Shown here in pieces: positions 1,681 to 31,891 of a DNA stretch of 32,000 nucleotides. Under the pieces are notes generated by a model. That model was not told where the DNA came from. It saw nothing but the letters and a program-made list of their open reading frames with translations, and ran no database searches. Made by a program: the position numbers and the translations under genes. The stretch is taken from positions 210,001 to 242,000 of the forward strand of contig NC_009925.1 in assembly GCF_000018105.1 (NCBI RefSeq), read 5' to 3'. This stretch comes from Acaryochloris marina MBIC11017 (lineage in GTDB: Bacteria; Cyanobacteriota; Cyanobacteriia; Thermosynechococcales; Thermosynechococcaceae). How positions within the stretch are numbered: position 1 is the first letter of the stretch; the number at the start of each line of letters is the position of its first letter.

Positions 1681-1932
1681 CAGCTTTATCCTTTATGAGG
1701 TAAGGGGGGCTTTTATATCTTGAAGAATTTGACTGACATTTGTCAGGGTTCATTCAGGTTCAGACAACCCTATTATTTCGAGTGATTGAAAGCAGCGATT
1801 AACGTGAAGGTCTTAAGAGTGCGGTTGCTCCCTGTATCAATTGGATTTCCGTAAACTCTCGGATACAGAAAACACAAGAGCTTATTTACTATAGAGGAAT
1901 AAATATATAAATAAATCTAGTAATCAATAACT

Positions 1933-2049
1933 ATGTCACCGTTAGAAAAAGAACTTCTTCCTATAGATGAGACTGAAGTATTCCCAGAAAATGACGAGCT
2001 AGAGATTGTAGACCTTGATGATCTACTGAAAGAACTACAGCAAGATTGA
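1933..2049 (+). CDS. Possible 38-aa highly acidic small protein (MSPLEKELLPIDETEVFPENDELEIVDLDDLLKELQQD)
   Basis: ATG-initiated ORF read by hand. It ends 35 nt before the 2085 ORF on the same strand. No homology was recognised. Confidence 0.25.
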   Translation: MSPLEKELLPIDETEVFPENDELEIVDLDDLLKELQQD

Positions 2050-2084
2050 GGCTTAAAAATACTACTCGAAAAGATTAACCCTAC

Positions 2085-2531
2085 ATGGATCCTAATAGCC
2101 TTGCAGTCTGGAAAAACTTAGAGACTCATCTGGGTACTCCTTTCAGGAGAAATATGGTGGATCTCGTGTTGGAGATAGCCCGTGACCGGACTACCGATCC
2201 GCATAAGATTGCCACTTGGATGGTGACGACCTCTACTTCCATCTGTCATGCAACTTTCGGGACAAATGATCCCATGCCCTTGCTCTCACTCTATATCCGG
2301 GCATTAGATACCCAATATCCAGCCACCATGCAGGAAATTTATCAAATATTAGCCAATGAAGGCTTAGTGAAATATGCTCCTTCATCACTGAAACGTGACG
2401 ACTTCACGAGTATCCTCTGGGCTGCGGGTTCGACCTTTGCTAACGGCGAATTAAAACTGATAGAAGATAAGATCTATATCAGCCCTCAAGGATTACAGCG
2501 TTTGAGATCGATCTGGAAAGCACCAACGTGA
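2085..2531 (+). CDS. Hypothetical protein, 148 aa
   Basis: ATG-initiated ORF with balanced composition. No recognisable motif. Confidence 0.5.
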   Translation: MDPNSLAVWKNLETHLGTPFRRNMVDLVLEIARDRTTDPHKIATWMVTTSTSICHATFGTNDPMPLLSLYIRALDTQYPATMQEIYQILANEGLVKYAPSSLKRDDFTSILWAAGSTFANGELKLIEDKIYISPQGLQRLRSIWKAPT

Positions 2532-2897
2532 CAAACCAACAATCCTCGACTTTTATCGAAATAGAGCAGATTCAGGTACTTCTTAATTCGGACAGTTTCA
2601 AACTCAACTGTCAGCTCTGGCGAAAGGATTACTCTCTGCTTATAGTCTCAGCTCTTTCAATCATCAGACACTCAATCGCTTTGCCCTACTAAGACGAATG
2701 TTTTTGTGCTATTGACTTTAGGCATTGTTTTCATCAAAAATCTAGCAGCAACTCGAAGTTAATCTCTGATTGTAGTTAACCCCAATTCGGGTTAAGCCCA
2801 TTTTTGAGCCTCTTCTACGAAAGGATGAAGGTTTCAGCCTTTATCCCGAACTCAGGTTTCATTAAATAAATTCTTTTATTCCTAGAAGAAATTTTTT

Positions 2898-2934
2898 AAA
2901 AAAAAAGGGACAGTTCACGGTACTGGAACTGCCC
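2898..2934 (-). terminator. Intrinsic-terminator-like hairpin plus U-tract, read on the minus strand
   Basis: Minus strand reads GGGCAGTTC-cagtaccgt-GAACTGTCCC followed by TTTTTTTTT. On the plus strand this is an A-run at 2898-2906 and the stem-loop at 2907-2934. No annotated minus-strand gene ends nearby. Confidence 0.5.
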
Positions 2935-3180
2935 ATAAATATTCTGTGATAGATGAGAGAATTGCTCTATTCTCATCTCTTTCAATTGAGAATACCCAGG
3001 TCGGGAGCATACCTGACAAAGTGATGCGAATGAATTTCAAAGTCTTACTCAATTAAGATGTTCCTACATCAGAAGGCGTATAGTTCGAGATTTCACTGAG
3101 ATTGTCAAGGTCTTTAGTACAGCTAAAACACGACTTCCTCTCGCTGACCAGCTCATTCCCTTATTCTTCTGGCGATGTCC

Positions 3181-3920: not shown

Positions 3921-4691
3921 TCAATCATTTTTATGGAGGTTAGGATTGCTGCGGGCAAAGCTTAAGTCGGTAGTCACAGCTCTGAAGCTAGGCTTTGCAA
4001 AGTAATAGCCCTGAAATAATTGGAGACCTAATTCCCTAAGAACGTCTAATTCTAAATCTGTTTCAATGCCTTCTGCAATCGGTTCAATGGCTAAATCTCG
4101 ACAGACTTGCACAATTCCTCGAACAATGGCCTGCCGCGCTTTGTCTTTATCAATATTCCGAATCAAAGCCATGTCTATCTTAATAAAGTCAGGTCGGAAA
4201 TCAGCCAGAAAGTTAAACCCAGAATAACCGGCTCCAAAGTCATCCAACGCTGTTCTAAACCCCAACTTTTGATAGTGCTTAATGATGGATTGAACATGGG
4301 CATAATCTATAACCTTTTCAACTTCCGTTAGCTCAAATAGAATTCGGCTAATGGGAAAATTACATCGTTCAGCCGTTTCAAGTGTTGTCTGAAGACAAAG
4401 TTCTGGATGGTACACTGCATTGGGCAAAAAGTTGATACTCAATATCGATTGAATGTCTAACTCTGCGGCAAGCTGAATCGCCTGAACCCGACAAGCTTGA
4501 TCAAAGCGATATAGGTTCTCATCCGTTACTTGCTCCAAAATACTGATCGCTGATTCATTATTCATGCCTCGAGCCAGCGCTTCTTGCGCAAAAATACTGC
4601 CATCTGCAAGATTCACAATGGGCTGAAAGGCCATTGTGAAGCGAAAGTTCAGCCTAGACGAATTCAGACAACCGTCACACTCCCTAGCCAT
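3921..4691 (-). CDS. Stand-alone EAL-domain c-di-GMP phosphodiesterase
   Basis: All canonical EAL motifs are present: QEALAR, NFLPN, ELTE, DDFGAGYSG, KIDMALIR, EGIET, QGYYFAKP. There is no GGDEF or sensor domain, only a short N-terminus with a CDGC motif. Confidence 0.9.
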   Translation of the reverse strand: MARECDGCLNSSRLNFRFTMAFQPIVNLADGSIFAQEALARGMNNESAISILEQVTDENLYRFDQACRVQAIQLAAELDIQSILSINFLPNAVYHPELCLQTTLETAERCNFPISRILFELTEVEKVIDYAHVQSIIKHYQKLGFRTALDDFGAGYSGFNFLADFRPDFIKIDMALIRNIDKDKARQAIVRGIVQVCRDLAIEPIAEGIETDLELDVLRELGLQLFQGYYFAKPSFRAVTTDLSFARSNPNLHKND

Positions 4692-5131
4692 TGAACTCTA
4701 CACAACCGCAGCTGGAATTCTTGGACATGAGGCTAGACATAGGCCAGATCAAGATAAACAATATCTGCAAATTGTGCTGCTTCTTGGCAACCCAGGCAAG
4801 TTGATGCTGTTTACCTCATCGACCAGTATGCCCACTGCGTCAACGTGGAGCCTCTCATTCCCCAAAATTCTGGATTGGGCCTTCTGGGGGCTTATTAAAA
4901 ATATTCAGCAGAAATCTGACGAACAACCATCATTCTGAATCTTCAAAAGTCGTCCTCTTTTTGAAATATTTTTAACTTTAATATTGCCTTGAGATAGATA
5001 TAAATGATTGGGGACCTATTCAGATTATTAGTTCATATAAATGGGTACTCTACGGACATCAGTTAATGGGTGAGGTGGGGGAGTATCTCTCCTTATCACT
5101 AGCGGTCCAATTTACTCCGTGAGCGTTTCAA

Positions 5132-9718: not shown

Positions 9719-9741
9719 CCCTCTTTTATCACTTTAGACAG
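9719..9741. repeat. Left terminal inverted repeat of the IS (CCCTCTTTTATCACTTTAGACAG)
   Basis: Exact reverse complement of 11088-11110. Confidence 0.9.
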
Positions 9742-11047
9742 AGAGAAAATCAGGATGCTTGAGCAATTTCCTCACCAGTGGACAGCAAAATGCCTCCATC
9801 TTTGATGTGAGTTGCTCAAACCCCTTTTTCAAAGCACGGCTGGGAAAGACTTCTAACCAGCGCTTTAGAAGATTCCAACTGATTAACGGTTGAATGATCA
9901 AGCGCACATTATTGAGCAGATTCTTCCACCCGTTTTGGTTATCCCACCAAGGATGCTGCGCAAAGTGTTGATGTGCCACTGGACAAGAGTCATTGAAGAC
10001 ATCAGCGAACAAACTCACCATCAAGAAAGCGCTCATCACTATCTCCCACCACTTTTCAATTTGTTCGTAGTGCGTCATGCGAAAATCAGCCCAACCCAAG
10101 GTATCTTTAGACTGTTTGAGACCATACTCAATCCAAGTTCTGAAGCCATAGCAATCCCCAATTTCATCCAGCTTGATCTCGGGTGCCGCTGCCATGACAT
10201 AAGAGGTTGAGTTCTCTGGTAGCGTTTGGGGGTCCGTGGTTAATAGCCAATAGCGCTTCTGGTGGTGTCGCTGGCCATAAATGATCTCTTGCCTGTAACG
10301 AGTTTCAGTGGTGCCATTGCTGAAGGTTCGTTCAAATGACTGCCACGGTTCGGCAAAGACTGCTTGTTCTGCGGGTAACCACACCGCATGATTGCTACGA
10401 ATCGCTAGGATATAGGGCAGCTTTAACTCCTCTAAGACATTCACAAAGTTTGTTTGAGCTTCCCCATACAAGCTGTCAGCCAGGACGAGCTCAAAGCAAA
10501 AGCCCATCCCTTGCAACTGTCGGATCATTCCAGCAGCAATTTGGGGTTTGCTGAGATACTCATCCTCCTCTTTAAGACGTTCTCGGGGTTTGTACACTTC
10601 AAAGGACAAAGGCAAAATCATCCCTTGAAACAGCCCGTAGGCAGTGACTGCGACGATGCCATTCTCTTTCTTGCCCACATTGCCGATATACTGCCGTTTC
10701 ACATAGTCGGTACTCTTGCCTTTTTTGCAATCGCCCGTCTCATCGATCAATAGAATTAACCTGCGCCCATCCAGTATTTTCAAGATGATGTCCAATCTCT
10801 TGTCAGACAAATGTGACGCTACCCAAGGTGATTCACTCAGAAAATGATGCAGGCTTTGATGGTTCTCCAAGCCCACTGCTCTTGCAATGGCGGGCAATGA
10901 TTTACGTTTGATATCACTAATCATCCCCAGATGGAGATGCTTGAAGGCTTCATAACTGCGGACTTGGGGAAATAACTCTGCAAATAGTTGGCAGTACTCA
11001 TCAACAAAGCCAATGGTTGGTTCTGGACTTCTTGAAGCTGACATCAC
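9734..11047 (-). CDS. IS701-family (SRSO17-like) DDE transposase
   Basis: 437-aa ORF with the family-typical block LLIDETGDCKKGKSTDYVKRQYIGNVGKKENGIVAVTAYG and downstream acidic catalytic regions (LADSLYGE). Confidence 0.85.
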   Translation of the reverse strand: MMSASRSPEPTIGFVDEYCQLFAELFPQVRSYEAFKHLHLGMISDIKRKSLPAIARAVGLENHQSLHHFLSESPWVASHLSDKRLDIILKILDGRRLILLIDETGDCKKGKSTDYVKRQYIGNVGKKENGIVAVTAYGLFQGMILPLSFEVYKPRERLKEEDEYLSKPQIAAGMIRQLQGMGFCFELVLADSLYGEAQTNFVNVLEELKLPYILAIRSNHAVWLPAEQAVFAEPWQSFERTFSNGTTETRYRQEIIYGQRHHQKRYWLLTTDPQTLPENSTSYVMAAAPEIKLDEIGDCYGFRTWIEYGLKQSKDTLGWADFRMTHYEQIEKWWEIVMSAFLMVSLFADVFNDSCPVAHQHFAQHPWWDNQNGWKNLLNNVRLIIQPLISWNLLKRWLEVFPSRALKKGFEQLTSKMEAFCCPLVRKLLKHPDFLSV

Positions 11048-11174: not shown

Positions 11175-13541
11175 TTATTTATAGATGGGGAGTCGCACCG
11201 TAAAGATTGTCCCTACCGTTTCTTGGCTGGTGAGTGTTATTTCACCCCCATGCAAGTCAACGGAGCGTTTGACAATAGCCAAGCCTAATCCTGTCCCCGA
11301 AATATTACCCACATTCGTGGCTCGATTAAAAGAATTGAATACATGACTACATTCCGATGGCGGAATTCCTAAACCATGATCTTGAACCTTGAGAATGGCT
11401 TCATCGCTTTCAAACACTAAATCAAAATTGATTATTCCCCCCTGGGGGGAGTATTTGATGGCATTCGATAGTAGATTCGTAAAAATATGACGAAGTAATT
11501 TTTCGTCCATTTGCACTTCAGTCAATTGCTCTTGCAAACGACAAACAATCTCATGGGTTTGGGTCGTGATCTGCAACTCTTCAGCCAAACCTGTGCAGAA
11601 CTCGGTGAGTTGCATCGGGACGGGATTAAAAGCAAGGTTACCGGATTCTGCCTTACCCAGTAACAGTACATCATTGAGCAAACCCGTCATATGATCAACG
11701 GATTGCTGAATTTGACTTAAATGCTTGAGCTTGCGAGTCTCATCCCACTTATGACCATAGTGCTCTAACAACTCCGCAGAAGACAGGATCGTTGCCAAGG
11801 GTGTCCTAAATTCATGGGATGTCATCGCCACAAACCGTGACTTGAGTTCATTGAGTTCCCTTTCCTTGTTGAGCGCGTTGCGAATATCGTCTTCAGCTCG
11901 TTTGCGTTCAGTGATATCGCGAATCACAGCCATCACTTCATTCTCAGCACTGACTGCAAACCGAGCCTCAAACACGAACGAGTTTCCTTCAGCGTCAAAC
12001 TGATATTCAAACAGCTGCATCTCATGCCTATCGAGTGTTTTTTCAATGCACTCCATAAATGGTTGGGCCGTAGCTTTGGGGAAAACATCATAAAGAGATT
12101 TTCCTAAGAATGCTTCACTAGGCAGGGGCAGTTTCGTATTGGGTGCATCTTTATAATTGACAAAAATGCCATCCGCACTGAATCGAAACATCCAGTCGGG
12201 CATGGCATTAATTAAGGCTCGGTTAGTGGCAACACTGGATTGCAAAGCAGCTTCAGCGCGCTGTCGCTCAACAATCTCGCTTCTCAAGTGTTCATTACTC
12301 TGCTTGAGTTCAACCGTTCGTTGTTGGACTCTTTGCTCTAGCTCGCTATGTGCTCGCTGTAAGTCTGATTCAACTTGCTTGTGATCGCTGATATCACGAC
12401 CTTCGAAAATCAGCAAAACAACATTATCCACCTCATCATGGACGGGCTTTAAGGAAAAATCGATAGTGGCAACCTTGTCCTCGGCTCCAAGTATATCCAC
12501 TTCATACCGAACGAACTTTCCCCAAGCTGCCTCAATAACAGCATTTTTAAGTCGGCTTTGTGTTTCTGCTGATTTAGACCACCATCGAGTTTCCCAGAGT
12601 GGAGTATTAATGACGTCGTCTAAATGGAGACCCCCAAACTCTAAAGCAGTTTGATTCGCCTCCAACAAAATTCCATCGGGGTTCAGAAGACCCGAGAACT
12701 GGAAGGTTTGGTTGAATATAGCCTTAAATCGTCGCTCACTATCCTTAAGGGCAGCTTCCATTCTCTTCCGTTTAGTAATATCAACGATATAAGTTCGAAT
12801 CAAATCACTCTCTGCAATGTAATGAACGGATTGCTCAAAGATTTGAGATCCTATTTCAACTTCTCTAGCGAAGTTTTTTTCGTCCTCTTGGCCAATTAAA
12901 GTCGTTACCCCTGCCATGATTGGGTGATCAGTTTGCATCTCCCGTAATTGTGGGAACTGGGCCACCGCAGCGGGATTCAAGTAAGTAATCTTACCGTTTA
13001 AGTTACTCTCGATAATGGGGTTCGTAAAGAGTTCTGGGAAGGAGGCTAGCCGGACGATTGCAGCCTCATTGGAGTGGGCAAGTACTTCACTGGGTGGTGT
13101 TTGGCTCTGCATCGGATTGTGAAGATTGGACAAAAAGCCCGTCACCTCATCCGATTCACAAGACTCTAAAAAATGGACATCGGCAATATTGTTCGTCATA
13201 TAATACCGAGCCCGGACCTCCTGACCAAACATGACTTCATCGCCATGATTCAAGTCGTGCGTGGTACACTTTTGGCCGTTGACTGTTAAACCATTCATGC
13301 TCCGTTTACCCTGAAGGTTTCCATCAATCAAACGAAAAAGATGGCTATCAATATCAGGTTTAGTCACCCGCATCAGCAAGGCATGTTGACGAGATACTGA
13401 TGGTGATTTAATCACAATCGAGTTACTAGGATCTCGACCAAGAGAGCAAGTCGAATCTATTAGTGGGACAGTTCGTTTCCCTAGCTCGTCTTCAATAACT
13501 AGAAAATGCTGAATTTTTGGAGAAGATGTGGAGAAATCCAT
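11175..13541 (-). CDS. FHA-domain / multi-PAS sensor histidine kinase
   Basis: N-terminal FHA signature (SLGRD...SRQHALL...NG..VNG). Repeated PAS-like blocks are separated by coiled-coil linkers. H-box FVAMTSHEFRTPLATI. N/G boxes LLSNAIKYSP, DHGLGIP, GTGLGLAIV. Confidence 0.9.
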   Translation of the reverse strand: MDFSTSSPKIQHFLVIEDELGKRTVPLIDSTCSLGRDPSNSIVIKSPSVSRQHALLMRVTKPDIDSHLFRLIDGNLQGKRSMNGLTVNGQKCTTHDLNHGDEVMFGQEVRARYYMTNNIADVHFLESCESDEVTGFLSNLHNPMQSQTPPSEVLAHSNEAAIVRLASFPELFTNPIIESNLNGKITYLNPAAVAQFPQLREMQTDHPIMAGVTTLIGQEDEKNFAREVEIGSQIFEQSVHYIAESDLIRTYIVDITKRKRMEAALKDSERRFKAIFNQTFQFSGLLNPDGILLEANQTALEFGGLHLDDVINTPLWETRWWSKSAETQSRLKNAVIEAAWGKFVRYEVDILGAEDKVATIDFSLKPVHDEVDNVVLLIFEGRDISDHKQVESDLQRAHSELEQRVQQRTVELKQSNEHLRSEIVERQRAEAALQSSVATNRALINAMPDWMFRFSADGIFVNYKDAPNTKLPLPSEAFLGKSLYDVFPKATAQPFMECIEKTLDRHEMQLFEYQFDAEGNSFVFEARFAVSAENEVMAVIRDITERKRAEDDIRNALNKERELNELKSRFVAMTSHEFRTPLATILSSAELLEHYGHKWDETRKLKHLSQIQQSVDHMTGLLNDVLLLGKAESGNLAFNPVPMQLTEFCTGLAEELQITTQTHEIVCRLQEQLTEVQMDEKLLRHIFTNLLSNAIKYSPQGGIINFDLVFESDEAILKVQDHGLGIPPSECSHVFNSFNRATNVGNISGTGLGLAIVKRSVDLHGGEITLTSQETVGTIFTVRLPIYK

Positions 13542-13928: not shown

Positions 13929-14312
13929 TCATTCATCGGAAGTTAAACTATCAGGACGCAGAGCATTCAGCTTTGATAAAAGCCTCTGAATCGCTGCTAG
14001 GGACTCAATCAGATCTGATAGCTCTGTTTCTAATGTTGATGCTAGTAATTCCGTCAGATCTGATAGCTCTATTTCTAATGCTAATGAGAGGTCAAACATT
14101 TCTTGAGCATTCGTTGTCACTCCTTTATCAACGACATCAGTTGCCAGTTGATATAGCTGTATTAAGTTCCTTCTTAAATCAAGTAGTCTACCAGCTAAAT
14201 GTTCACCTGGAGGGTTAATCAACCTATAAAGAAGATTCACTGCAGCTAACAAATCAACCGTCTCAAAGTGTTGATTTAAATACTTCCATTCTTCATAAGA
14301 CATCGAGGACAT
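13929..14312 (-). CDS. Hypothetical helical/coiled-coil protein with an internal 15-residue duplication
   Basis: 127-aa ORF with Leu/Glu-rich heptad-like sequence. It contains the in-frame 45-bp tandem repeat at 14009-14098. Confidence 0.5.
   Translation of the reverse strand: MSSMSYEEWKYLNQHFETVDLLAAVNLLYRLINPPGEHLAGRLLDLRRNLIQLYQLATDVVDKGVTTNAQEMFDLSLALEIELSDLTELLASTLETELSDLIESLAAIQRLLSKLNALRPDSLTSDE
14009..14098. repeat. Two tandem 45-bp units inside the CDS 13929-14312
   Basis: TCAGATCTGATAGCTCTgTTTCTAATGtTgATG (from 14009) and TCAGATCTGATAGCTCTaTTTCTAATGcTaATG (from 14054). The period is 45 nt, i.e. 15 codons. Confidence 0.8.
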
Positions 14313-15048: not shown

Positions 15049-15835
15049 GGTCTTGGGGAATAGATATAAAGGTTGTCAGAGATAGGGTTTTAAGCTTCAT
15101 ACATGCCCATAAGGTCTTAATCCCACTAAAATCATGAATCCGTTAATGGACTACCTCTGATGTGCAGTTGTGTGATTTTCACCGATCACTCTATTGAGCA
15201 AGTAGTATTTCCTAACCAAAAATAGAGAAGATGATTTGATAGCTCATGATATAAGAACTATCATTTTTTAAGAAAAAATTTATTCTCAGATTCAGCATTT
15301 AACACTAATCATTATCTCAATCACAGATTTATCTTTATGATTGAAGTGATGCTTACGATATTTAATTTAGTGTATTTCTTTGAGTATTTTCCCTGCGATT
15401 CTAATTTAATGCATGATTTATCAAATTTCTATTCTGTTTTAATCTAAAAAACAGAATTATAGCGTTAGTTTTGGATTCACACATTATTGGATATACTTAA
15501 AAAGTTTAATTATGAGTAATATTTACTCAATCATGCGCATGATCTTTGTTAGTTTAAGCGGACGTAAAGCATTTCAAACAGGTGTTCTAAGCGTTTTGTG
15601 ACTCAGATCACAGTAGCTTGAAATAATTGTCATTGTAATGAACTAAATGGATATTATGCTTTGCCCTTTCATGATTATTCAATAAATTATTCAACTCTTC
15701 CGATGCTTCTGTGCAAGAACACTTTTGGATGAGTATTATTAGAGATATAACTTATATTGGGATTTAAGTTTTGATACTTGTCATTCCCTTAATAAAGTCT
15801 AGTTATTTTAATAGTTAAAGTTTTCTTCCACTGCT

Positions 15836-16582
15836 ATGAAAAAAATCAAATCAGAGGCTTGTGAACATCATCTACTAGTGATTGATGATGGAAAGGAACG
15901 GCGCATTGTCAAGTTAACCGAAGTTGCTTATTCAATCGGTCGAGACGCAACCAATGCCATTGTCTTGAATAATCCGTCTATTTCCAGACAACATGCCATG
16001 CTAGTGAGAGTCCCTCTCCCACATCAAGCTCATCGGTATCGCATCATTGATGGCAATTCTCAGGGTAAACCCAGTGCTAATGGGATTTACATCAATGGTC
16101 GGCCATCTTCAACCCGTGAACTTGAGACAAAAGATCTCATTAACTTTGGCAAGGATATTAAAGCGACTTATCTCACGCTTGAGATGGGCCAAGTGGAATT
16201 GCTGAATTATATTGAATCGCTCTCTTACAAGAGCCTTAAATCTGACACCCTAGACCATAAGGCAACGGTGTTTAATTCAGCCAATGTACCAGTGGCTGAA
16301 TTAAACACCGTTCTAGCATGTCATCATTCACCCACCCCAGAACAGGACCATGACTCGCTTCAGCAGGCTCCTCTTCAGGCAAAAGAGACGGTTCGGTTAT
16401 CCAGAGAGGAGATCCTCAAAGAGCTAAATAAACCTGTCAGCCGTCAAATGTGGATGGTTATAGCTGGAGCGATCCTATCCTTCTGTACACTAATCGGTTG
16501 GTTGATGCTCGATGCTAGAAAGAGCAGTCCAGCATTGGAATTTACCCAAGCACCCAGCAGTTTGGGGGACGCTAGACTTTAA
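15836..16582 (+). CDS. FHA-domain protein with a C-terminal transmembrane anchor
   Basis: The N-terminal FHA domain (SIGRD...SRQHAML...IDGNSQGKPSANGIYINGR) is clearly paralogous to the FHA of 11175-13541. A hydrophobic helix (MWMVIAGAILSFCTLIGWLML) lies near the C-terminus. Confidence 0.85.
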   Translation: MKKIKSEACEHHLLVIDDGKERRIVKLTEVAYSIGRDATNAIVLNNPSISRQHAMLVRVPLPHQAHRYRIIDGNSQGKPSANGIYINGRPSSTRELETKDLINFGKDIKATYLTLEMGQVELLNYIESLSYKSLKSDTLDHKATVFNSANVPVAELNTVLACHHSPTPEQDHDSLQQAPLQAKETVRLSREEILKELNKPVSRQMWMVIAGAILSFCTLIGWLMLDARKSSPALEFTQAPSSLGDARL

Positions 16583-16636
16583 AGTTCAATTTAACGATTC
16601 GGTCTGCCCTTTGTTGAACTAGTAGTTAATCAACAA

Positions 16637-16766
16637 TAGACCTCTTGCAATATTCGTTTCATGATGTGCTACTGACGAAAGAAATTCAGCGATCTGACTC
16701 GGATTTTAGTCCTCTAGCATATCGTTAGTTGAATTATGCAAGAGGTCTAATAACAGTCGCTGAATT
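16637..16766. repeat. Two interleaved perfect inverted-repeat pairs in the leader of ORF 16802
   Basis: Pair A: TAGACCTCTTGCA (16637-16649) with TGCAAGAGGTCTA (16737-16749). Pair B: AATTCAGCGA (16683-16692) with TCGCTGAATT (16757-16766). The order along the sequence is A1-B1-A2-B2. Confidence 0.75.
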
Positions 16767-16801
16767 AAGACAAATAACAGTGAGAAGTATTAGGATTAAC
16801 G

Positions 16802-17083
16802 ATGATAGCTGAGGATCTGATTGACTATTATTTAAACAATTTCAATTCATCCCTTGATGCGACTGGAAACGCTGCTGTGGATATACCTATTCTTCAATCA
16901 TGGGATTGTGTTGATATTAATAATCAGACAAAAGTTCATGGGCATTTATTTCAGCATCACACACTTCCACCTGGTAAGTATTTAGAATCTTCTGCTGTTC
17001 AGCGATATTTTGTGTATCAAGGTCATGTTTGTGTGGCCACTAAAAACTCAACCTATAGGTTAGGCATTCCTCTCCTCTTCTAA
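16802..17083 (+). CDS. Small hypothetical protein (93 aa), paralog of 17133-17450
   Basis: Shares the pattern SW...G.L..H...P.G.....S.V.RY....GHV.h.T.NS.Y.LG.PL with the convergent neighbour. Confidence 0.5.
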   Translation: MIAEDLIDYYLNNFNSSLDATGNAAVDIPILQSWDCVDINNQTKVHGHLFQHHTLPPGKYLESSAVQRYFVYQGHVCVATKNSTYRLGIPLLF

Positions 17084-17132
17084 GGATGATGTCCAAATCA
17101 TTTGTAGTCTGCATTATGATGAATGGAATTTC

Positions 17133-17450
17133 TTACTGGGTCATTCGTTCTAATTTTTGGAAATCAGTTGTTTTCAGAGGTTGACCCAACTCATATAGGG
17201 AATTTTGAGTTTTGATGTATACGTGACCATCACCCGCTAAGTAACGATGGACTGTTGAGGTCATCATCTTAACCCCGTCGGGATAATCAGGATGGCCCAG
17301 GAGTCTTCCTTTGATAACAGCACTCTTTCCCTTTCGTATAGCAGTCCAGGACTCAATAACGGTTATTTTTTTTGGTGTTTCAAAATGATCGTCTGGAATA
17401 TTAGAAGTATTCTTTTGGAAAAAAACGGATATATCAGTAACTTGCAACAT
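17133..17450 (-). CDS. Small hypothetical protein (105 aa), paralog of 16802-17083
   Basis: Same conserved C-terminal block (VHRYLAGDGHVYIKTQNSLYELGQPL), in convergent orientation. Confidence 0.55.
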   Translation of the reverse strand: MLQVTDISVFFQKNTSNIPDDHFETPKKITVIESWTAIRKGKSAVIKGRLLGHPDYPDGVKMMTSTVHRYLAGDGHVYIKTQNSLYELGQPLKTTDFQKLERMTQ

Positions 17451-21147: not shown

Positions 21148-21179
21148 TATTTTCTCTGGTCAGAGGATTTTACTTGGCT
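21148..21179. repeat. Copy A of a 32-nt direct repeat with a dyad-symmetric core
   Basis: TATTTTCTCTGGTCAGAGGATTTTACTTGGCT matches 21440-21471 at 30 of 32 positions. Confidence 0.85.
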
Positions 21180-21439: not shown

Positions 21440-21471
21440 TATTTTCTCTGGTCAGAGGATTTCACTAGGCT
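21440..21471. repeat. Copy B of the 32-nt direct repeat
   Basis: TATTTTCTCTGGTCAGAGGATTTCACTAGGCT. It lies 13-44 nt upstream of the ATG at 21427 on the minus strand. Confidence 0.85.
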
Positions 21472-22901: not shown

Positions 22902-23924
22902 TTAATTGCTCAATCCAACATGCGTAGGCGCAATAAATACCCAACGAGTGAGGGTATTGCCTTTCCCGTAGTGCTGCCTTCTCCAATGCCCACGACGCCA
23001 ATGAGGAGACTTACTTCTATCGCTGCCATCCGTGCTGTGACTGGAAGCAGATCGATACCCTTCTCCGATCATCAAAGGATGATAAGTTGTATGTCGCTTT
23101 CCTCTGCGGGCTATCCCAGTAGTAGAAGAACTTTTCCGTTTCCCGGTCCTATATTCTGGCGCGTTCTGTTCAGCCCAAAGAATCGTAGAAAGCAGAACAG
23201 ACAGGGCCGTCTCTACCTCGCCTAGGTCGTTTGACTGGGATCCAGGGTTGAGATCAATCCCTTTGTCAACGCGCAAGAACCCGGATTCTTCCCTGAAGGT
23301 TACCAGTCCTCCAACTACGGATTTCCCCGTCTCTATCCCACCCCAAACCAAAGACCACGAATCTTGATCCTTCCGATCTCGGCTAAAAGCATATTCTGCT
23401 CTCCCTTCAGAAGACGTGCTTACTATTGAGGGGAGTTCCTTTGTGCCTGGCTCTACCAAAGAATAGACAAGACACACCATCTCTCCTGTTTTGCTAACGA
23501 TACTGCTCCGAGGCAAGACAACTAGACCATATTTAGGCAATGTGAATCTGTTCGGGATTTCGGTTGGCAAATCCGTTTTCAAAAAATCAGAGAGCAGATC
23601 CTCGTCCAAAAAATAGTAAGGAAAATGGGGGCTGGCTGTTAGTGCAGCGGTAGCATGGTAAACATTGGCACGCACAGGGTCTCTAGCTACTGATTCCGCG
23701 TTTGAACCAGCGGACACCGACACCAAGGCATCAGCAACCATGCGGTTGGAGTAATGACTGCTCAGTCTAGGTGAGAATTTTCGTTCGTAGCTTTCCCGAA
23801 GGTCCTCACGAGATGGTGTCAACACCCCCGCACCTCTCATCATTTTTCTAAAAGTCTTAGGGTGCATCCCCGCTTTTTTCATCGATTTTTCCATGTCTTT
23901 GTAAATCTTCTGGGCATCTATCAT
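22902..23924 (-). CDS. Hypothetical protein with a basic His/Arg/Trp-rich C-terminal motif, 340 aa
   Basis: GGAG lies about 9 nt upstream of the ATG. The C-terminus reads KSPHWRRGHWRRQHYGKGNTLTRWVFIAPTHVG. Confidence 0.65.
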   Translation of the reverse strand: MIDAQKIYKDMEKSMKKAGMHPKTFRKMMRGAGVLTPSREDLRESYERKFSPRLSSHYSNRMVADALVSVSAGSNAESVARDPVRANVYHATAALTASPHFPYYFLDEDLLSDFLKTDLPTEIPNRFTLPKYGLVVLPRSSIVSKTGEMVCLVYSLVEPGTKELPSIVSTSSEGRAEYAFSRDRKDQDSWSLVWGGIETGKSVVGGLVTFREESGFLRVDKGIDLNPGSQSNDLGEVETALSVLLSTILWAEQNAPEYRTGKRKSSSTTGIARRGKRHTTYHPLMIGEGYRSASSHSTDGSDRSKSPHWRRGHWRRQHYGKGNTLTRWVFIAPTHVGLSN

Positions 23925-24119: not shown

Positions 24120-27100
24120 TTACTCAATCAATTTGTCGAGTTCCGCTATCTGATCTTCAATCGATCGTCTAAATTCGAGAAACCATTTGGGATAAGATCC
24201 ACTGTTTCTATCTAAAGAGTCATTAGAGTTATAAAACAGTGGATCTGCAAGGCTTCGGGCGTCTACACAGTCTTTAGCGCAAGCGTCATCAATCTGCTTT
24301 TTGACGTATAGCACGGTGCCCCGAAGCAGTTGCTTGCGGATTTCATGAACGTCTTTGTTCACGATCGCAGCATATCTGCGCTGAGATCCCCCGTTACCCG
24401 TTCGAGCGACACAGGGCATCGGATCATAGCTCAGGCGCTTTACAAGCCGATTTATGACGGCTATAGGGCTGTCGTTGGCTGTTTGGAGCTGGAAAAGGTC
24501 CCATAACTCTTGCTGATGTTCAACGAGATAAGCCCAAAACTGGGACTCCCTAACCTCAGCTTCACTGATATTGTTGCCCCGGCCATGAGTGCGGTAAAAA
24601 TCGGCTACCCCCGAATCATTAATAAAAATCTGTTCTCTCAGGGTTCCCCGTAGGACTCCATGCAAATGATCACCGTTGGCGGCATCTCGCTTAAATTTTT
24701 GACATTGATCTTTCGTAAAAAGATCGGAGTTCAGCAAATATCGGGCTAGCCGTGTGGCACATGATCTCAACTGTCCGTTCTTGTGGACGAGGGTGTAATA
24801 GATAAAGTCAGGATCGGACCATTGAGACTCTGGGTACTCCAATCTCAATAAGGCCAAGTCAGCCGCTCTCTGCTCTGCAACCGTGGAAGTAGGTGAATTT
24901 TTTATTCTCCGGGCTTCTGCCTCGCTTTGAATAAAATGACTTTCTTCTACGACTTGCAGATACTGATGAGTTCTCAGATTCTCAAGGATGCAGGCAACAT
25001 CACCTTGACGTGATCTGATTTCGTCCGGTTCTCTGCCACCATCAAAAACAACTCTTCCTTGGCTGTTGTACTCTTTTAGATTTTCACGCTCAATAAAAGT
25101 GATGCCGTTCTCTGTGTAATCGGCATAATGATCAAGAAAGCACTCAGCAAAATGGTAAGTTTCGTATTTTAATTGGGCCATCCGTTGAGCATTTACTAGG
25201 GATAGAAATTGCCCCGTATTCTTTGAACTGGATAGGGCGTCAACAAAAGATGTACCTTCCTTGATCTCCCAGCCCTGCAGGTTCTTAGCAGACTGACTCC
25301 CTGTAACTTCCACATGTCGGGCAATTTGTTCCTGCTCAATAGCGCAGAACACAAAGAACTCGTAAACTCGATCTTCGCATTCGACAACGTTATCCAAAAC
25401 GTCGAGATAATCCTCTGCAAACTTAGAACCGAACAACCACTCTAAGAAAACATCGTTGAAGAACTCCCCAAAAAAGGCTCTATCTTTGTGGAACCTTTCA
25501 AGCCAATTGTCGGCTAGTACAAGCGTACCACCCCCAGCACAAGCAAAAGCGCAGGCTCTACCCTGAGCAAATAGCTCAAGTGCGCGGTAGGTAAAGCCTT
25601 CCATACGTCCGTGGATTGCTTCAAAGCACGCGATCGCATCGTTAAGATTGAAACGATTACCTGTTTTCCCCAGTAACTTCAACTCAGCTCGATTCTTTCG
25701 GGACTGATTAGCATGATTGTCTTTCCACTCTTGGGTGATATCCAAAGCAACCCGATTATTTAAAACTCTTGGTGCATAAACAATAGTCTCTGGTCTCGAT
25801 CTGTTCCGGGACAACGCCTGAGAGATATCCTCTAGGCTTCCCCAGGACGCCAATACCAGCGTTGCACTAATATCAAGTGCATCACCATAGAACGACAATC
25901 CTGTACCAATCAGCGGCGATCTCATAAGGTGCTGACCGTCTTTGGTCCCTTCGGCAATCACATTCTGCAATTCCTTCGTTTTCTTGCCAGATCTCATACA
26001 GTCACGGGTTGCGGCAAACAGGGGGAAAACCAGCTCCTTAGAATCTAGAAATGCCTCATGCATTAATCGGATCAAAGCCTTGGCTGACTCCCAGCTTAGC
26101 CCCATCCCTAACAGCTCTTGCCACGGTGCCCCATAGCGTTGCTGAGTGACAAATAGCTCCTTAGTCCATCCCTTATCTTGAGTCTCTAACCACTGCTCGA
26201 CCTTCAGCTTTTGGTGATTCTTTTCGCCACCGATCCAGCCGTCATACTTTCCAACTGGCGAAAAGTCCCAATAAACCAGGTGCTGTGTAACCTCATTCCC
26301 TGCCGTATCTTTTTTGCTGGTAGACTTCACCAAGACATGCTGATCCGTAACCTCATCCACCCAAAATGGCTGCTGTAGTGCTTCAAGGAAACGCCATAGC
26401 TTCAGTGCCTCCGGGCTGAAGTCTATGGCCTTAATTTCAAAAAGAGGGGCCTTAGCGTACTTATCCCAATCTTCAGCCCCCAACTCTTTAAGCGCTTGCT
26501 TAGCCTTGGCATCCCTAAAAATATGCTTGAGATATCGTTGAGGTCGAGTAAACTCCTGAAACTTAAGGATGTCATTTGCACTTTGGCAGTGAATATCCAG
26601 CCGACGAACGCTTTTAGGCTGAGTGAACTGTAGTCTGCTATCCTTGCCAAACCCAAAAGCTTCATGGTCGCCCGTCAAATGAGCGCTGACTGCTCCTAGA
26701 TAACTTTCCTGAGTCAACGTCAACCCGTCTTTGAATTGCTCCTTATATTGATTGACAAAGACGTTGGCCTCGACATCCATCCACCACTCGAAGAACCTAA
26801 CCGCGATTTCACTCAGATTTTGCTGGGCAATGATCACGGGCCAATCATTCTCCTTGGCATGATCAAGAATCCTCTTGAGCTGATTGAGATTGGCCTGTCG
26901 TTGGGTGGCGTGGGTGCTGCCTAAAAGATCCAGGATTACCCGATCGGTCTCATCAATAAAGACCACAACCTTATCCGTAGCAAATTTCTCAAAACGACCA
27001 AAGTTAAAAAAGCCTTGCAAACATGCCGAGATGTCACCTAATCCTAGACCCTCATATTCCGCCGCTTGTTCGTCGTTCCTATCTGTTGCCAATGCAGCCC

Positions 27101-29729
27101 CGTTCTCAAGTGCCAAAATTTTCAAGGGTGCAGCATAAAACTTTTTGCACTCCAACAGCTCAAGCAATTGCTCTACTAACGTTGTCTTACCTGTTCCGGT
27201 GGGACCACTGAGGGCAAAAAGATTAGATTTAGACTCGTCCTGATGAATCTCAATGATCTTGTCAGCCAGCTTCACCCCGTCAATCAGACCCGCTGCCATA
27301 TATCGGGCATTGAACACCCCGGACCCTGCTCGATCCTGCAACTTTGGCAATGTATGCTGATAAATCCGCTGATTAATCAACTTACTCAGATGACCTGTCA
27401 GCTCATTCAGGCTGGTGTATAGGTGCTTTTGGCTGTCTATCCTCACCAACACCTTGCAACCATTCCCTTCCAATGCAAACCAAGTCCGCATCAGATTGAA
27501 CTTAAGCCGGGTCAACCCTTGGGCGTCGTTACCAAGTCCCTCAACATCCGCATGGAGCGCGATAGTTCGATCCTTTAGGACCTCTGTGTACTCAGGTCTT
27601 AGCTGCGAGTCGATGCATTTGGTTGAGATGCCCTTGAGGGTCAAAGATGTCAAGCGATCGAGTTGAATCGCCTGGAGTTTAACGTTATCAAGCTCAATCT
27701 CTGTATCTAGCTGACTGGCATCACTGGTTAACAGAGGTACAACCCCCTCACCTAATGAAGCCAAACCCTCGCTTATATTGGTTGCTTCCAATGCGTTAGC
27801 AGCATTCTTTGATTTAGCTACAAGGGTTCTAACTCGTTCTGAAGGCTTCCACGTCCCATCTACTTGGCCGTGAATATTCCTGATGATCGACGATAGACCG
27901 ATTGAATAACAGGTACTGCCCAGCTCCTTAGCGACATAAGCCTCATCCAGACCAAAATTATCAACACCAAAATTTTCTGCTAATTCGTATCGCTCCTCCG
28001 CAGTTCCGCCGTCACTGTGATAAATGCCAAGCAGAATTGACCAGCGCTGGTGGCGATCACTAAGTTCAGTACCCTTTTGGTGATAGGTTAGCCCTTGATT
28101 GATTGGGTCGCTGACAACCTCCAAAATTTCTTCTGTAGTAAGACCGTGACCTGTAATCCCGGCTGCAATCCTCGCTTCTTGAGCCAGTCTTAAATTTTTA
28201 TGCTCCTCCACGTTTTGAGTGGCAACAGCTTCCACAGGCGTCTTAGGAGCTTTGGCCTTCACTTTCTTGGCTTTGATACCTTTAGCCCGCTTCCCACCCA
28301 GTAAGGCGTCGTTCTCCTCGTCTGACTGTAGGAAAACATCAGTGACCTTACGGCCCGTTACGTCGATAGTGTTGTTACCTTTGGGGGCTTTAACAATCTG
28401 AAGTCCTAAGCTCTGGTAATACTTCCAATCTTTACCGCTTCGGTAGTCTTTCCCGTATTCCTGTCTAAAAAAGGATAAAAGCCCGTCATTCAGCTCACTG
28501 AACGATAGGTCCCTCGACCCCAATTGCATGATCGATTGATTAGTGATCACATTCTCATTGCCGACCCGCACCGCACGGAAAGCACCAGCCATGCGCAATG
28601 CCCTACCTGCAGAAGCAACCGCATAGTCACCCCCTGTCACAGAAATAGCGGTCTTCAAGACCTCGTAGTACTGATCCCTGCTTTCAGGATGATCGATTGT
28701 TGGGATATAAAAATGAATGGATTTTTTGCCAGACCACAACATCAGAAATTTGGTCCCAAGAAATTGTTGCAGCGTCACCAACCTGGCAAGCTGTTCATTC
28801 AAGCAACCGTCATCAATCTCTAGCCCTATGAAATCAGGCATTGTCCCAGGTAAACTGGTCGCTTTACGATCTTTGATCTGACCGTGGGGGAACCAAGTAA
28901 CGGCTTTTCCTTCAGCCCTGGCTAAAAACTTCAGCAGTTTCACTGGGTACACGGCCCTCGACCCATCCTTGAGCCATCTTCGAGTCCCATCATCATTAAT
29001 TCTTACTAGCTCCTCAACACCAGAGCTTCCTAGGAATCCTCTATATCCTGACCACTTGTCAACAGCGGCCAAAAAGCGCCCATGCTCACCAACCAGCTCA
29101 TTAAAAAACAAGTTTGCTGCCTTGGCTCCCAGGAAGTCTGGATTGCTAGTGCAAACCAGATCCGAGGTCACTTGATCGTAGGGTTTACCCCAAGCAATCA
29201 ATCCCAGCTCGTCTAACACCTCTGGACGGTTAGGCTGAGGATTCCTGACATCCACGGTATTCTTGCGGCGCAATGCCAAGTTCTCAGCAGAACTCAGTCC
29301 CTCAACAAGCTCAGGAACAATCAAATAAGGATTAACCTTGGCCTCTTTTTTTGCTCCACTCGCTGAAACGTTTGTACTACCTTTGAGGCCGTTAAATTCT
29401 AAGGATGCCGTTTTCTCGGCTGGAGAATCTAAGAAAGCTAGCCGTTCAGCATGAGTCATCCCCTCAGGCGCATACTTTGAAGGGTTGGCGCAGATATCCT
29501 TGGCTCGAAATGTTACAGAATCGTTACAATTTTCTACTTTTTTCTCGGTCTCTTTTGAAATATTTTTTGAATCGCTAGAAGCGTTGCCCTCTGTGGCTTT
29601 GGGGCTGACACCACTGGCGAGTGGTTCACTTGTACTTGCGTTTGTAGTGGTTGATTGATTACAATCGCATGTAACAAATTGTGCGATTTTTAAAGGTGCC
29701 GACATGGGAATTCTCTTGATTGCTTGCAA
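24120..29729 (-). CDS. Giant (1,861-1,869 aa) multidomain protein: AEP-type primase-like domain, P-loop NTPase (helicase-like), and a large uncharacterised C-terminal region
   Basis: AEP-like motifs: LEIDDG (res 303-308), SGKKSIH-FY (res 333-341), D368 followed by RALRMAGAFR. Walker A is GPTGTGKT (from res 842, nt 27183-27206). Walker B is VVVFIDETD (about res 920). The track start is a TTG at 29729; the ATG at 29705 (MSAPLK) is a likely alternative. Confidence 0.85.
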   Translation of the reverse strand: MQAIKRIPMSAPLKIAQFVTCDCNQSTTTNASTSEPLASGVSPKATEGNASSDSKNISKETEKKVENCNDSVTFRAKDICANPSKYAPEGMTHAERLAFLDSPAEKTASLEFNGLKGSTNVSASGAKKEAKVNPYLIVPELVEGLSSAENLALRRKNTVDVRNPQPNRPEVLDELGLIAWGKPYDQVTSDLVCTSNPDFLGAKAANLFFNELVGEHGRFLAAVDKWSGYRGFLGSSGVEELVRINDDGTRRWLKDGSRAVYPVKLLKFLARAEGKAVTWFPHGQIKDRKATSLPGTMPDFIGLEIDDGCLNEQLARLVTLQQFLGTKFLMLWSGKKSIHFYIPTIDHPESRDQYYEVLKTAISVTGGDYAVASAGRALRMAGAFRAVRVGNENVITNQSIMQLGSRDLSFSELNDGLLSFFRQEYGKDYRSGKDWKYYQSLGLQIVKAPKGNNTIDVTGRKVTDVFLQSDEENDALLGGKRAKGIKAKKVKAKAPKTPVEAVATQNVEEHKNLRLAQEARIAAGITGHGLTTEEILEVVSDPINQGLTYHQKGTELSDRHQRWSILLGIYHSDGGTAEERYELAENFGVDNFGLDEAYVAKELGSTCYSIGLSSIIRNIHGQVDGTWKPSERVRTLVAKSKNAANALEATNISEGLASLGEGVVPLLTSDASQLDTEIELDNVKLQAIQLDRLTSLTLKGISTKCIDSQLRPEYTEVLKDRTIALHADVEGLGNDAQGLTRLKFNLMRTWFALEGNGCKVLVRIDSQKHLYTSLNELTGHLSKLINQRIYQHTLPKLQDRAGSGVFNARYMAAGLIDGVKLADKIIEIHQDESKSNLFALSGPTGTGKTTLVEQLLELLECKKFYAAPLKILALENGAALATDRNDEQAAEYEGLGLGDISACLQGFFNFGRFEKFATDKVVVFIDETDRVILDLLGSTHATQRQANLNQLKRILDHAKENDWPVIIAQQNLSEIAVRFFEWWMDVEANVFVNQYKEQFKDGLTLTQESYLGAVSAHLTGDHEAFGFGKDSRLQFTQPKSVRRLDIHCQSANDILKFQEFTRPQRYLKHIFRDAKAKQALKELGAEDWDKYAKAPLFEIKAIDFSPEALKLWRFLEALQQPFWVDEVTDQHVLVKSTSKKDTAGNEVTQHLVYWDFSPVGKYDGWIGGEKNHQKLKVEQWLETQDKGWTKELFVTQQRYGAPWQELLGMGLSWESAKALIRLMHEAFLDSKELVFPLFAATRDCMRSGKKTKELQNVIAEGTKDGQHLMRSPLIGTGLSFYGDALDISATLVLASWGSLEDISQALSRNRSRPETIVYAPRVLNNRVALDITQEWKDNHANQSRKNRAELKLLGKTGNRFNLNDAIACFEAIHGRMEGFTYRALELFAQGRACAFACAGGGTLVLADNWLERFHKDRAFFGEFFNDVFLEWLFGSKFAEDYLDVLDNVVECEDRVYEFFVFCAIEQEQIARHVEVTGSQSAKNLQGWEIKEGTSFVDALSSSKNTGQFLSLVNAQRMAQLKYETYHFAECFLDHYADYTENGITFIERENLKEYNSQGRVVFDGGREPDEIRSRQGDVACILENLRTHQYLQVVEESHFIQSEAEARRIKNSPTSTVAEQRAADLALLRLEYPESQWSDPDFIYYTLVHKNGQLRSCATRLARYLLNSDLFTKDQCQKFKRDAANGDHLHGVLRGTLREQIFINDSGVADFYRTHGRGNNISEAEVRESQFWAYLVEHQQELWDLFQLQTANDSPIAVINRLVKRLSYDPMPCVARTGNGGSQRRYAAIVNKDVHEIRKQLLRGTVLYVKKQIDDACAKDCVDARSLADPLFYNSNDSLDRNSGSYPKWFLEFRRSIEDQIAELDKLIE

Positions 29730-30056
29730 TTAATTGGTTTTTGTGTCTTCGGTGGCACCGTTGGAAGTTGTGTCCGCCAAGATCTCGCTTCCTTCGGTGT
29801 TTTGACTAAGACCCGGCGGCCCTAGTGATTTAAGGAATCCTCGCTTTTTTGAGCGGGGGTTTTTGCTATCTGGGGTCTGTTGCAGTTGGCTGACCATGCC
29901 GTTAGTCTCCTTTTGGTTGGTTGTGGCGATCGGGGTGAAAGCTCGGGCGAAAGACATTTTGATTGGCTCCTTTAAGTGGTTGCTTAGGGTTATGGTTTGC
30001 CCGATTGGAATACTAGGCTTGCTCGAAAAAAGAGAGAACGTATCCCTAAAAATCAA
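29730..30056 (-). CDS. Small low-complexity protein. The likely start is the ATG at 29957 (75 aa).
   Basis: AAGGAG lies 9 nt upstream of the ATG at 29957. Its stop directly abuts the start of the giant ORF. The sequence is Ser/Thr/Pro/Lys-rich and looks disordered. Confidence 0.45.
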   Translation of the reverse strand: MIFRDTFSLFSSKPSIPIGQTITLSNHLKEPIKMSFARAFTPIATTNQKETNGMVSQLQQTPDSKNPRSKKRGFLKSLGPPGLSQNTEGSEILADTTSNGATEDTKTN

Positions 30057-30140: not shown

Positions 30141-30446
30141 TCACCCCTGTTTCAGCAGACTCCAACCACTTGGAAGCCTGTCAAAGAAATTCTTAATAGC
30201 CCTTTGGTGTGTAACCTCGTCCTCCCAGTGGTGAAGCCGATCCAAAACCAAAGGCAAACACCAAAGTTTTTTTCGGCCAAGTCGCACGAAATGAACCCCC
30301 TGGACCCATTTACCTGCTTGAGTCTGCACGTACAGCGTTGGGGCTGGGATGCCAATCAGTTGCTGCAACTCAACCTGAGAGCAATAGATTTGCCCCCCTA
30401 ACAACTCTGGAAGTGTGGTGATTTCTGGTTCTGGAAAATTTGTCAT
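30141..30446 (-). CDS. Excisionase/AlpA-like HTH DNA-binding protein (putative recombination directionality factor or regulator)
   Basis: The segment SQVELQQLIGIPAPTLYVQTQAGKWVQGVHFVRLGRKKLW fits the Xis/MerR-type HTH pattern (l..El..l.G....tly.....G......v..G.r..w). Its position near an integrase is consistent with this role. Confidence 0.5.
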   Translation of the reverse strand: MTNFPEPEITTLPELLGGQIYCSQVELQQLIGIPAPTLYVQTQAGKWVQGVHFVRLGRKKLWCLPLVLDRLHHWEDEVTHQRAIKNFFDRLPSGWSLLKQG

Positions 30447-31812: not shown

Positions 31813-31891
31813 TAGAAGTCCTCCAAAGCTGCCACCACCTTAACCTCTAAGTGAAATCCTCTGTTCAGATAAAAATCATCAGCTGATCTGG

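Follow-up and report, generated by a model that had tools for sequence, protein, structure and literature searches.

What kind of protein is encoded by a 5.6-kb open reading frame (ORF) that stands among ORFs without family matches in a cyanobacterial chromosome, and which process does it serve? This question is raised by the minus-strand ORF at positions 24120-29729 of a 32,000-nucleotide stretch (hereafter the window) of the 6.5-Mb chromosome of Acaryochloris marina MBIC11017, which comprises 1869 codons plus a stop codon and corresponds to AM1_0239 (WP_041658586). An initial annotation, made from the DNA letters alone, had described the product as a fusion of a primase-like domain of the archaeo-eukaryotic primase (AEP) type, a P-loop NTPase and about 900 residues in which nothing was recognized. 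The analysis reported here predicts that a PrimPol-like AEP domain is followed in this protein by the helicase and C-terminal module known from CyRepA1, a family of plasmid replication proteins. With a probability of roughly 0.6, we regard it as a single polypeptide that serves as initiator, primase and helicase for a mobile element, plasmid-like or a conjugative island, that now resides in the A. marina chromosome. In the following, nucleotide positions refer to the window, residue numbers refer to the 1869-residue translation and all parts of the gene lie on the minus strand.

The predicted AEP domain was assigned to residues 275-445 (28395-28907), with a core that reaches to about residue 395 and a conserved extension at residues 400-445. 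It contains motif I, LEIDDG, at residues 303-308 (28806-28823), motif II, SGKKSIHFY, at residues 333-341 (28707-28733), and motif III, D368...R376..R379.....R385 (28575-28628), in which RALRMAGAFR forms residues 376-385 downstream of D368. The spacing of motif III is the same as that of D280/R288/R291/K297 in human PrimPol. As compared with the PrimPol of cyanophage S-2L, E304, D306 and D307 correspond to E85, D87 and D88, S333, K336, S337 and H339 correspond to T112, K115, S116 and H118, and D368 and R379 correspond to D146 and R157. In S-2L PrimPol, E85, D87, T112, K115, H118, D146 and R157 are conserved throughout the AEPs, and D88 and S116 are conserved in close relatives (PMC8065100).

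The assignment was not obtained from curated families. None of the curated AEP models (Pfam Prim-Pol, AEP-TOTE, DNA_primase_S and others) was matched by the protein or by residues 131-500 at E-values (E) up to 10, AM1_0239 was not assigned to an AEP, Toprim or defence family in scans with Pfam, NCBIfam, PHROG and PADLOC, and sequence and profile searches of the PDB with its own segments returned no match. Among the Pfam families named in the initial annotation, Prim-Pol, PriCT, D5_N and DUF3854 were not matched, whereas AAA was matched, as described below. The first positive AEP signal came from hhalign, in which a two-sequence profile of residues 280-445 was aligned with the LigD PolDom with a score of 22.2 (E 0.018), placing LEIDD on FDLDP and SGKKSIHFY on SGSKGLHLY (the LigD PolDom sequences were verified against the PDB). 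By comparison, the scores of 400 column shuffles had a mean of 13.1 and went no higher than 20.8, and those of 86 decoys from real ORFs peaked at 17.9. Human PrimPol aligned with the AEP region out of register (E 0.44), and PriS aligned with motif II in register at an E of 0.18, which is not significant.

The link to a solved structure runs through cyanobacterial plasmids. A tblastn search of plasmids and phages with the whole protein gave zero matches, whereas two proteins emerged when plasmids were searched with the AEP core of 166 residues under a relaxed E-value, WP_198808350 from Leptolyngbya (tblastn E 6e-4, hhalign E 3.2e-7) and WP_015163094 from Chroococcidiopsis (tblastn E 0.08, hhalign E 1e-4), the latter a DUF3987 protein with a weak PriCT_1 match. 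Plasmid relatives, AM1_0239 and its homolog P0002 (described below) were combined into a 13-sequence alignment (family profile A8), in which D306, H339, D368 and R379 are invariant and E304, Q313, S337 and G382 are near-invariant. This profile matched the crystal structure of the S-2L PrimPol AEP domain (6ZP9) with an E of 1.3e-26, RSF1010 RepB' (3H25) with an E of 1e-4 and the LigD PolDom (2IRU) with an E of 0.2; it is dominated by the plasmid relatives, which AM1_0239 joins via the two hhalign comparisons given above. The two-sequence profile of AM1_0239 and P0002 alone was aligned by hhalign with S-2L PrimPol at an E of 6.8e-5 with motifs I-III in register, so that SGKKSIH lies on TGGKSIH of S-2L PrimPol as it does on SGSKGLH of LigD. 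Because of this chain from AM1_0239 via the plasmid family to 6ZP9, together with the direct S-2L alignment, residues 275-445 are read as a PrimPol-like AEP domain with a predicted complete set of catalytic residues. The AEP-type primase domain of the initial annotation is therefore retained, the similarity of its residues 280-400 to a solved AEP domain being significant. For S-2L PrimPol, the AEP domain has been shown to adopt the classical AEP fold and to be active as a DNA polymerase (PMC8065100). An AlphaFold2 prediction of the N-terminal region of AM1_0239 from two sequences had a pLDDT of 34.9, and its Foldseek matches were meaningless.

The P-loop NTPase leads to a different family. Residues 831-1000 (26730-27239) correspond to RecA1 of a CyRepA1-type helicase, as judged from NCBIfam, Pfam, PHROG and hhalign, and contain the Walker A motif GPTGTGKT at residues 842-849 (27183-27206) and the Walker B motif VVVFIDETD at residues 920-928 (26946-26972). 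The sole Pfam match of the protein is AAA (PF00004) at residues 840-971, with an E of 5.5e-8 and 33.8 bits versus a gathering threshold of 21.2. The NCBIfam CyRepA1 model (NF042913) matched AM1_0239 with an E of 3.5e-15 and 55.9 bits against a family cut-off of 200, as compared with 71.1 bits for P0002 and 463 bits for P0003, a true member, and the PHROG annotation of the NTPase is 'replication origin binding' (PHROG 3712). For profile comparison, a CyRepA1 reference alignment of ten sequences was built, and with it hhalign placed residues 834-995 on CyRepA1 RecA1 (E 2.9e-8) and residues 1267-1325, weakly (E 0.018) and collinearly with RecA1, on the SPSLETGVSI...RQ.LAR.RE block of CyRepA1. The latter residues belong to a segment with helicase motifs V/VI (SPLIGTGLSF ... 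QALSRNRSR; residues 1261-1330, 25740-25949), which includes the motif-V-like SPLIGTGLSFYGD at about residues 1271-1283 and is the most conserved block of the protein. Beyond it, residues 1588-1795 were aligned with residues 745-949 of P0003 with a probability of 83% and an E of 9e-6 (hhalign, alignment A6 versus A4), and a local hmmsearch marked a further stretch of the CyRepA1 C-terminal domain at residues 1730-1793; the homolog of this domain was delimited as residues 1586-1800 (24330-24974).

As the RecA1, motif V/VI and C-terminal matches are collinear, a predicted CyRepA1 helicase and C-terminal module spans about residues 831-1800, stretched by an insertion relative to CyRepA1 between the helicase halves (about residues 1001-1260, 25950-26729, 21% identity to P0002) and by a second insertion at residues 1331-1585 (24975-25739), which is the least conserved segment (18% identity to P0002). 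The P-loop NTPase and the helicase-like motif V of the initial annotation are thus borne out, and every motif that it listed, from LEIDDG, SGKKSIHFY and D368/RALRMAGAFR through the lysine-rich linker to the Walker A, Walker B and motif-V-like stretches, lies where it had been placed. Its view of the last 900 or so residues as unrecognizable applies to the insertions, but not to residues 1261-1330, with motifs V/VI, or residues 1588-1795, with the CyRepA1 C-terminal domain. The likeness to the pRN1 and P4-alpha fusions drawn there has to be given up, as the helicase is CyRepA1/UL9-like and AM1_0239 gave no match to superfamily 3 (SF3), D5_N, Pox_D5, DUF5906 or DUF3987-type helicases in Pfam, NCBIfam or PHROG. 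A P4-alpha-like organization was accordingly rejected, and a relaxase domain was rejected as well, as neither an HUH nor a relaxase signal was found in AM1_0239.

The class of the helicase was considered at the level of the family. Members of the CyRepA1 family match ResIII, DEAD and Herpes_ori_bp, and the CyRepA1 profile is weakly similar to solved herpesvirus origin-binding proteins in the PDB (E 0.005); this UL9-type, family-level similarity suggests an origin-opening helicase of superfamily 2 (SF2). The AAA lid family of Pfam has no match in AM1_0239, which contains the CyRepA1-conserved motif V/VI-like block instead. An AlphaFold2 model of RecA1 from three sequences reached a pLDDT of 58.7, and its best Foldseek match was p97 D1 (E 3e-3, TM 0.36); the search identified a P-loop alpha/beta fold only and did not separate SF2 from AAA+. 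Since the model is of low confidence and its p97-type matches are weak, the SF2 assignment rests on sequence.

AEP domains and large NTPases are also employed by several defence or conflict systems, and AM1_0239 could be conceived as a component of such a system. The giant gene lies within an island of unknown ORFs, its Leptolyngbya relative weakly matches the AEP domain found in TOTE conflict systems (E 0.072) and weak P-loop matches to PADLOC models were obtained. However, the PADLOC matches are restricted to the Walker A stretch and amount to 10-17 bits, the TOTE match is below threshold and the homology to a family of replication proteins, which is collinear, is far stronger; a role in defence is considered very improbable.

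The combination of the two modules is extremely rare. A word-indexed search of 5.8 billion clusters with AM1_0239 returned the self-match only, and an exhaustive phmmer search of 1.84 billion representatives with residues 131-1330 returned three proteins: AM1_0239 itself, P0002 and P0003. P0003 (996 residues) is a true CyRepA1 with DUF3854 at an E of 6e-46. P0002 (1918 residues), encoded on a 17.6-kb Logan contig (L001; SRR17348483), aligns with AM1_0239 over nearly the full length with about 24% identity, which rises to 32% in the AEP core, 33% in RecA1 and 42% in the motif V/VI block and is 18-24% elsewhere. As the identity peaks in the motif blocks, the motifs of AM1_0239 are beyond chance. 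Metagenome and viral contigs were also scanned with degenerate patterns, which yielded chance matches only and no further members, and a scan of a genome collection with the family alignment gave no match. Among about 15 billion sequences, AM1_0239 and P0002 are the sole cases found of an AEP domain fused to the CyRepA1 module.

The surroundings of these relatives bear on the process that is served. The gene for P0002 sits between genes for a VirB4-like ATPase and a TraG/VirD4 coupling protein in a type IV secretion cluster, and the gene for the closest AEP relative, that of Leptolyngbya, immediately follows a MobA/VirD2 relaxase gene and precedes an SF2 helicase gene. Moreover, MobF relaxases of Nostoc plasmids have been found with a fused DUF3854, the domain replaced by the AEP here. 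These arrangements would fit a conjugation protein that acts with the relaxosome or passes through the type IV secretion system and then primes and unwinds the transferred strand in the recipient, by analogy with the TraC and Sog primases and with helicase-bearing relaxases. On the other hand, the 10 kb downstream and the 2.3 kb upstream of the gene in A. marina contain no type IV secretion or relaxase gene, and the helicase and C-terminal module come from a family with an experimentally shown role in replication. A conjugation role is the main rival of the initiator role and is judged to be rather unlikely; the two roles are not mutually exclusive.

On the metagenomic contig that encodes P0002, the VirB4/TraC-like ATPase and the TraG/VirD4 coupling protein are located at 226-3042 and 15255-17432, flanking the P0002 gene, and three more large ORFs are without a family match; the contig may represent a conjugative element of a kind not described so far.

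The initiator of a mobile element remains the preferred reading of AM1_0239. The mobile element is suggested by the position of P0002 in a type IV secretion cluster, by the occurrence of the AEP relatives on plasmids and by the island of unmatched ORFs around the A. marina gene. In the CyRepA1 and N15 relatives a Toprim-type domain (DUF3854 or Toprim_3) precedes the helicase, and at this position AM1_0239 has the AEP domain. The C-terminal CyRepA1-like domain and the helicase would recognize and open an origin located in or beside the gene module, where the UL9-like SF2 helicase would unwind the DNA with ATP by means of K848 of Walker A and D926/E927 of Walker B. The tethered AEP domain would then prime the exposed single strand and, as a PrimPol relative, may extend the primers as DNA, with the outcome that replication of the element begins after excision or transfer. 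The conserved 101-residue protein encoded upstream probably regulates or assists the start of replication. The earlier suggestion that initiator, primase, helicase and further activities are combined in one polypeptide is in line with CyRepA1 homology for the first three, while no identifiable extra enzymes were found for the last. The size of AM1_0239 is explained by the insertions and a conserved middle region of 330 residues and not by identifiable extra enzymes.

Several observations weigh against this assignment. The NF042913 score of AM1_0239 is far under the family cut-off, and the SF2 class is derived from family-level matches, the low-confidence RecA1 model resembling AAA+ p97 equally. 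S-2L PrimPol showed zero primase activity in standard assays (PMC8065100), and a zinc-finger or PriCT-type helper domain was not detected in AM1_0239. An origin, iterons or an integrase were not found in the window, which stops 2.3 kb upstream of the gene. Finally, AM1_0239 is chromosomal and may therefore be a relic, that is, an inactive remainder of an integrated plasmid or element in which the ORF is intact but unused. Such a relic would be consistent with the lack of a recognizable origin, integrase or transfer genes in the window and with the extreme rarity of the family, but the 5.6-kb ORF is free of stop codons and keeps all of the catalytic residues, the conservation is concentrated in the catalytic blocks and the upstream partner gene is also intact. 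This makes an inactive copy distinctly unlikely, less so than a defence component.

If AM1_0239 is an initiator, a history of the lineage can be tentatively sketched, although taken as a whole it is more doubtful than the initiator role itself. An AEP PrimPol may have taken the place of the Toprim-type primase ahead of an origin-opening helicase of the CyRepA1/UL9-like kind, giving a self-contained initiator able to prime as well as extend DNA. Together with its small partner, this protein might form the minimal replicon of undescribed conjugative or integrative elements of cyanobacteria, with the middle region and insertions possibly contributing further activities.

Of the known systems, CyRepA1 itself is the closest in organization. 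CyRepA1 (Slr7037) is needed for replication of pSYSA and carries a plasmid into another cyanobacterium, and has been described as consisting of DUF3854, which is Toprim-related, and a DEXDc helicase (PMC9978351, PMC10079941). The RecA1, motif V/VI and C-terminal domains of CyRepA1 (Slr7037 of Synechocystis pSYSA; NF042913) and CyRepA2 are homologous to those of AM1_0239 and are arranged in the same order, and all of these proteins have a nucleotide-polymerizing domain ahead of the helicase, a cyanobacterial host and a small gene just upstream. In contrast, AM1_0239 contains an AEP domain in place of the DUF3854/Toprim-like domain, is twice as long as CyRepA1 owing to the middle region of about 330 residues and the insertions at about 1001-1260 and 1331-1585, is encoded on a chromosome rather than on a plasmid and scores 56 bits where the CyRepA1 cut-off is 200. 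In keeping with the first difference, no DUF3854 or Toprim signal was found in AM1_0239 by Pfam scans, and its N-terminal and middle regions do not align with the N-terminus of CyRepA1.

RepA of N15 has been reported to unite primase, helicase and DNA binding in one polypeptide. As predicted for AM1_0239, the RepA proteins of N15-like linear phage-plasmids (for example WP_263452881, 1331 residues) would be single-chain primase/helicases; they bear the NCBI name CyRepA1 family and match Herpes_ori_bp of Pfam. Their primase domain is Toprim_3, whereas that of AM1_0239 is an AEP, and no significant direct similarity between AM1_0239 and N15-type RepA was detected (hhalign E 0.16). In Klebsiella, Escherichia and Shigella, the RepA proteins of N15-like telomere phage-plasmids carry the NCBI name 'CyRepA1 family', and a Shigella sonnei plasmid (L002, 3423-7418) encodes an N15-type protein with Toprim_3 and Herpes_ori_bp.

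S-2L PrimPol (6ZP9) and the N-terminal domains of cyanobacterial plasmid proteins labelled 'DUF3987 domain-containing' and of proteins related to these share with AM1_0239 the AEP motifs E-x-D-D, (S/T)GxKSxH, D and RxxR. However, the S-2L-type relatives carry PriCT and an SF3-like, DUF3987 or VirE-type helicase, or are accompanied by a separate SF2 gene, and the CyRepA1 module was present in none of those checked. The general plan is shared with pRN1 ORF904, poxvirus D5 and the P4 family, in which a virus or mobile element likewise joins a primase to a replicative helicase; the helicases of that group are of the SF3 type, whereas AM1_0239 gives no SF3 signal. The primase of P4 alpha is of the Toprim type and not an AEP. 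Herpesvirus UL9 shows a weak and indirect, family-level helicase similarity to AM1_0239 and is without a primase domain.

On the plasmids, the AEP-domain relatives either have a DUF3987-type helicase in the same protein or stand before a gene of its own for an SF2 helicase; among the relatives checked, those of Fischerella and Planktothrix gave no match to the CyRepA1 hidden Markov model, and that of Planktothrix adjoins ParA-like and RHH genes. On the plasmid of Leptolyngbya sp. BL0902 (L027, 4467-11718), genes for the MobA/VirD2 relaxase, the 470-residue AEP protein (annotated as hypothetical only), a ResIII/Helicase_C helicase, a DUF3560 protein and RecG form an apparent operon.

The fusion, as predicted from these comparisons, would indicate that the CyRepA1 helicase and C-terminal module can work behind a wholly different primase fold, and AM1_0239 would provide a clean natural case in which a single initiator architecture has exchanged its primase for one of an unrelated superfamily. 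Among the known initiators of plasmid replication in cyanobacteria, CyRepA-type proteins are the main ones, and new shuttle vectors are based on them; should the gene with its flanking DNA be capable of autonomous replication, a replicon compatible with existing CyRepA1 and CyRepA2 vectors could be obtained. A two-member family with one relative inside a type IV secretion cluster points to poorly sampled mobile elements of cyanobacteria, and unnamed 'hypothetical' and DUF3987 proteins of cyanobacterial plasmids are now tied to the AEP structure of S-2L PrimPol.

The ORF at 24120-29729 encodes 1869 residues with zero internal stops, and its first codon, TTG at 29729, is a mechanical start, being the first in-frame codon past the stop of an upstream 75-residue ORF. 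In RefSeq the protein starts at M9 (ATG at 29705), comprises 1861 residues and is labelled 'AAA family ATPase', and in GenBank it starts at M91 and comprises 1779 residues; one of these two is likely to be the real start. As the start is uncertain, part of the Ser/Thr/Asn-rich N-terminus may go untranslated. Nothing suggests a split gene: the 1861-residue protein is present in NCBI, Logan, MetaClust and nr, and the ORF of the homolog P0002 is also intact, so the frameshifts that might have undone the initial reading of one long polypeptide were not encountered. The N-terminal region (residues 1-274, 28908-29729) is without an assigned function and shows a gap-rich 20-23% identity to P0002, in which the Ser/Thr/Asn-rich beginning is barely conserved. 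A lysine-rich linker, K480-K496 (28242-28292), precedes the middle region (residues 497-830, 27240-28241; about 330 residues), which has about 22% identity to P0002 and, in family and profile searches, neither matched any family nor aligned with the N-terminus of CyRepA1.

Two small minus-strand ORFs lie upstream of the giant gene. The 101-residue ORF at 30141-30446 has 34% identity (E 4e-18) to positions 4529-4840 of the contig that encodes P0002 and is without a match in Pfam, PHROG or NCBIfam; its product is possibly a small DNA-binding protein or regulator. As it is conserved directly upstream of the giant gene in both loci, the two genes appear to travel together. The 75-residue ORF at 29730-29957 has a good ribosome-binding site (AAGGAG, 9 nt from its ATG), shares the frame of the giant ORF and stops one base short of it; the P0002 contig has no conserved counterpart. 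The layout of the 75-residue ORF and the giant gene recalls that of the small ssr7036 upstream of slr7037 in pSYSA.

To the left of about 15 kb the window contains ordinary chromosomal genes and a DDE transposase, and from about 19.4 kb to its end it contains ORFs without family matches. The exception, and the only other ORF of this island with any match, is the 340-residue ORF directly downstream of the giant gene (22902-23924, minus strand), which weakly matches phrog_15934 (E 2.3e-5), a phage family of unknown function. Searches around the giant gene for tRNAs, Rfam families and iterons were negative, and those for promoters and terminators gave nothing convincing. The 25-nt repeat TTTTCTCTGGTCAGAGGATTTYACT, with the palindromic core CTCTG-GT-CAGAG, occurs at 21150-21174 and 21442-21466 on the plus strand and at 31850-31874 on the minus strand. 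Each copy is located 15-62 nt upstream of the start of a minus-strand ORF (21101, 21427 and 31812). No copy is expected by chance, and the repeat is absent from the P0002 contig; it may be an operator that links the transcription units of the island.

The DDE transposase (DDE_5, E 2e-34) is encoded at 9734-11047 on the minus strand amid sensor kinase genes, about 8 kb to the left of the block of unknown ORFs. Two FHA-domain proteins are encoded close to each other, at 11175-13541 on the minus strand and at 15836-16582 on the plus strand; one of the pair is an FHA-PAS-histidine kinase and the other is a 248-residue FHA protein with a C-terminal hydrophobic segment. Two 33-nt direct repeats, 91% identical and 45 nt apart, are located at 14009-14086 within the ORF at 13929-14312.

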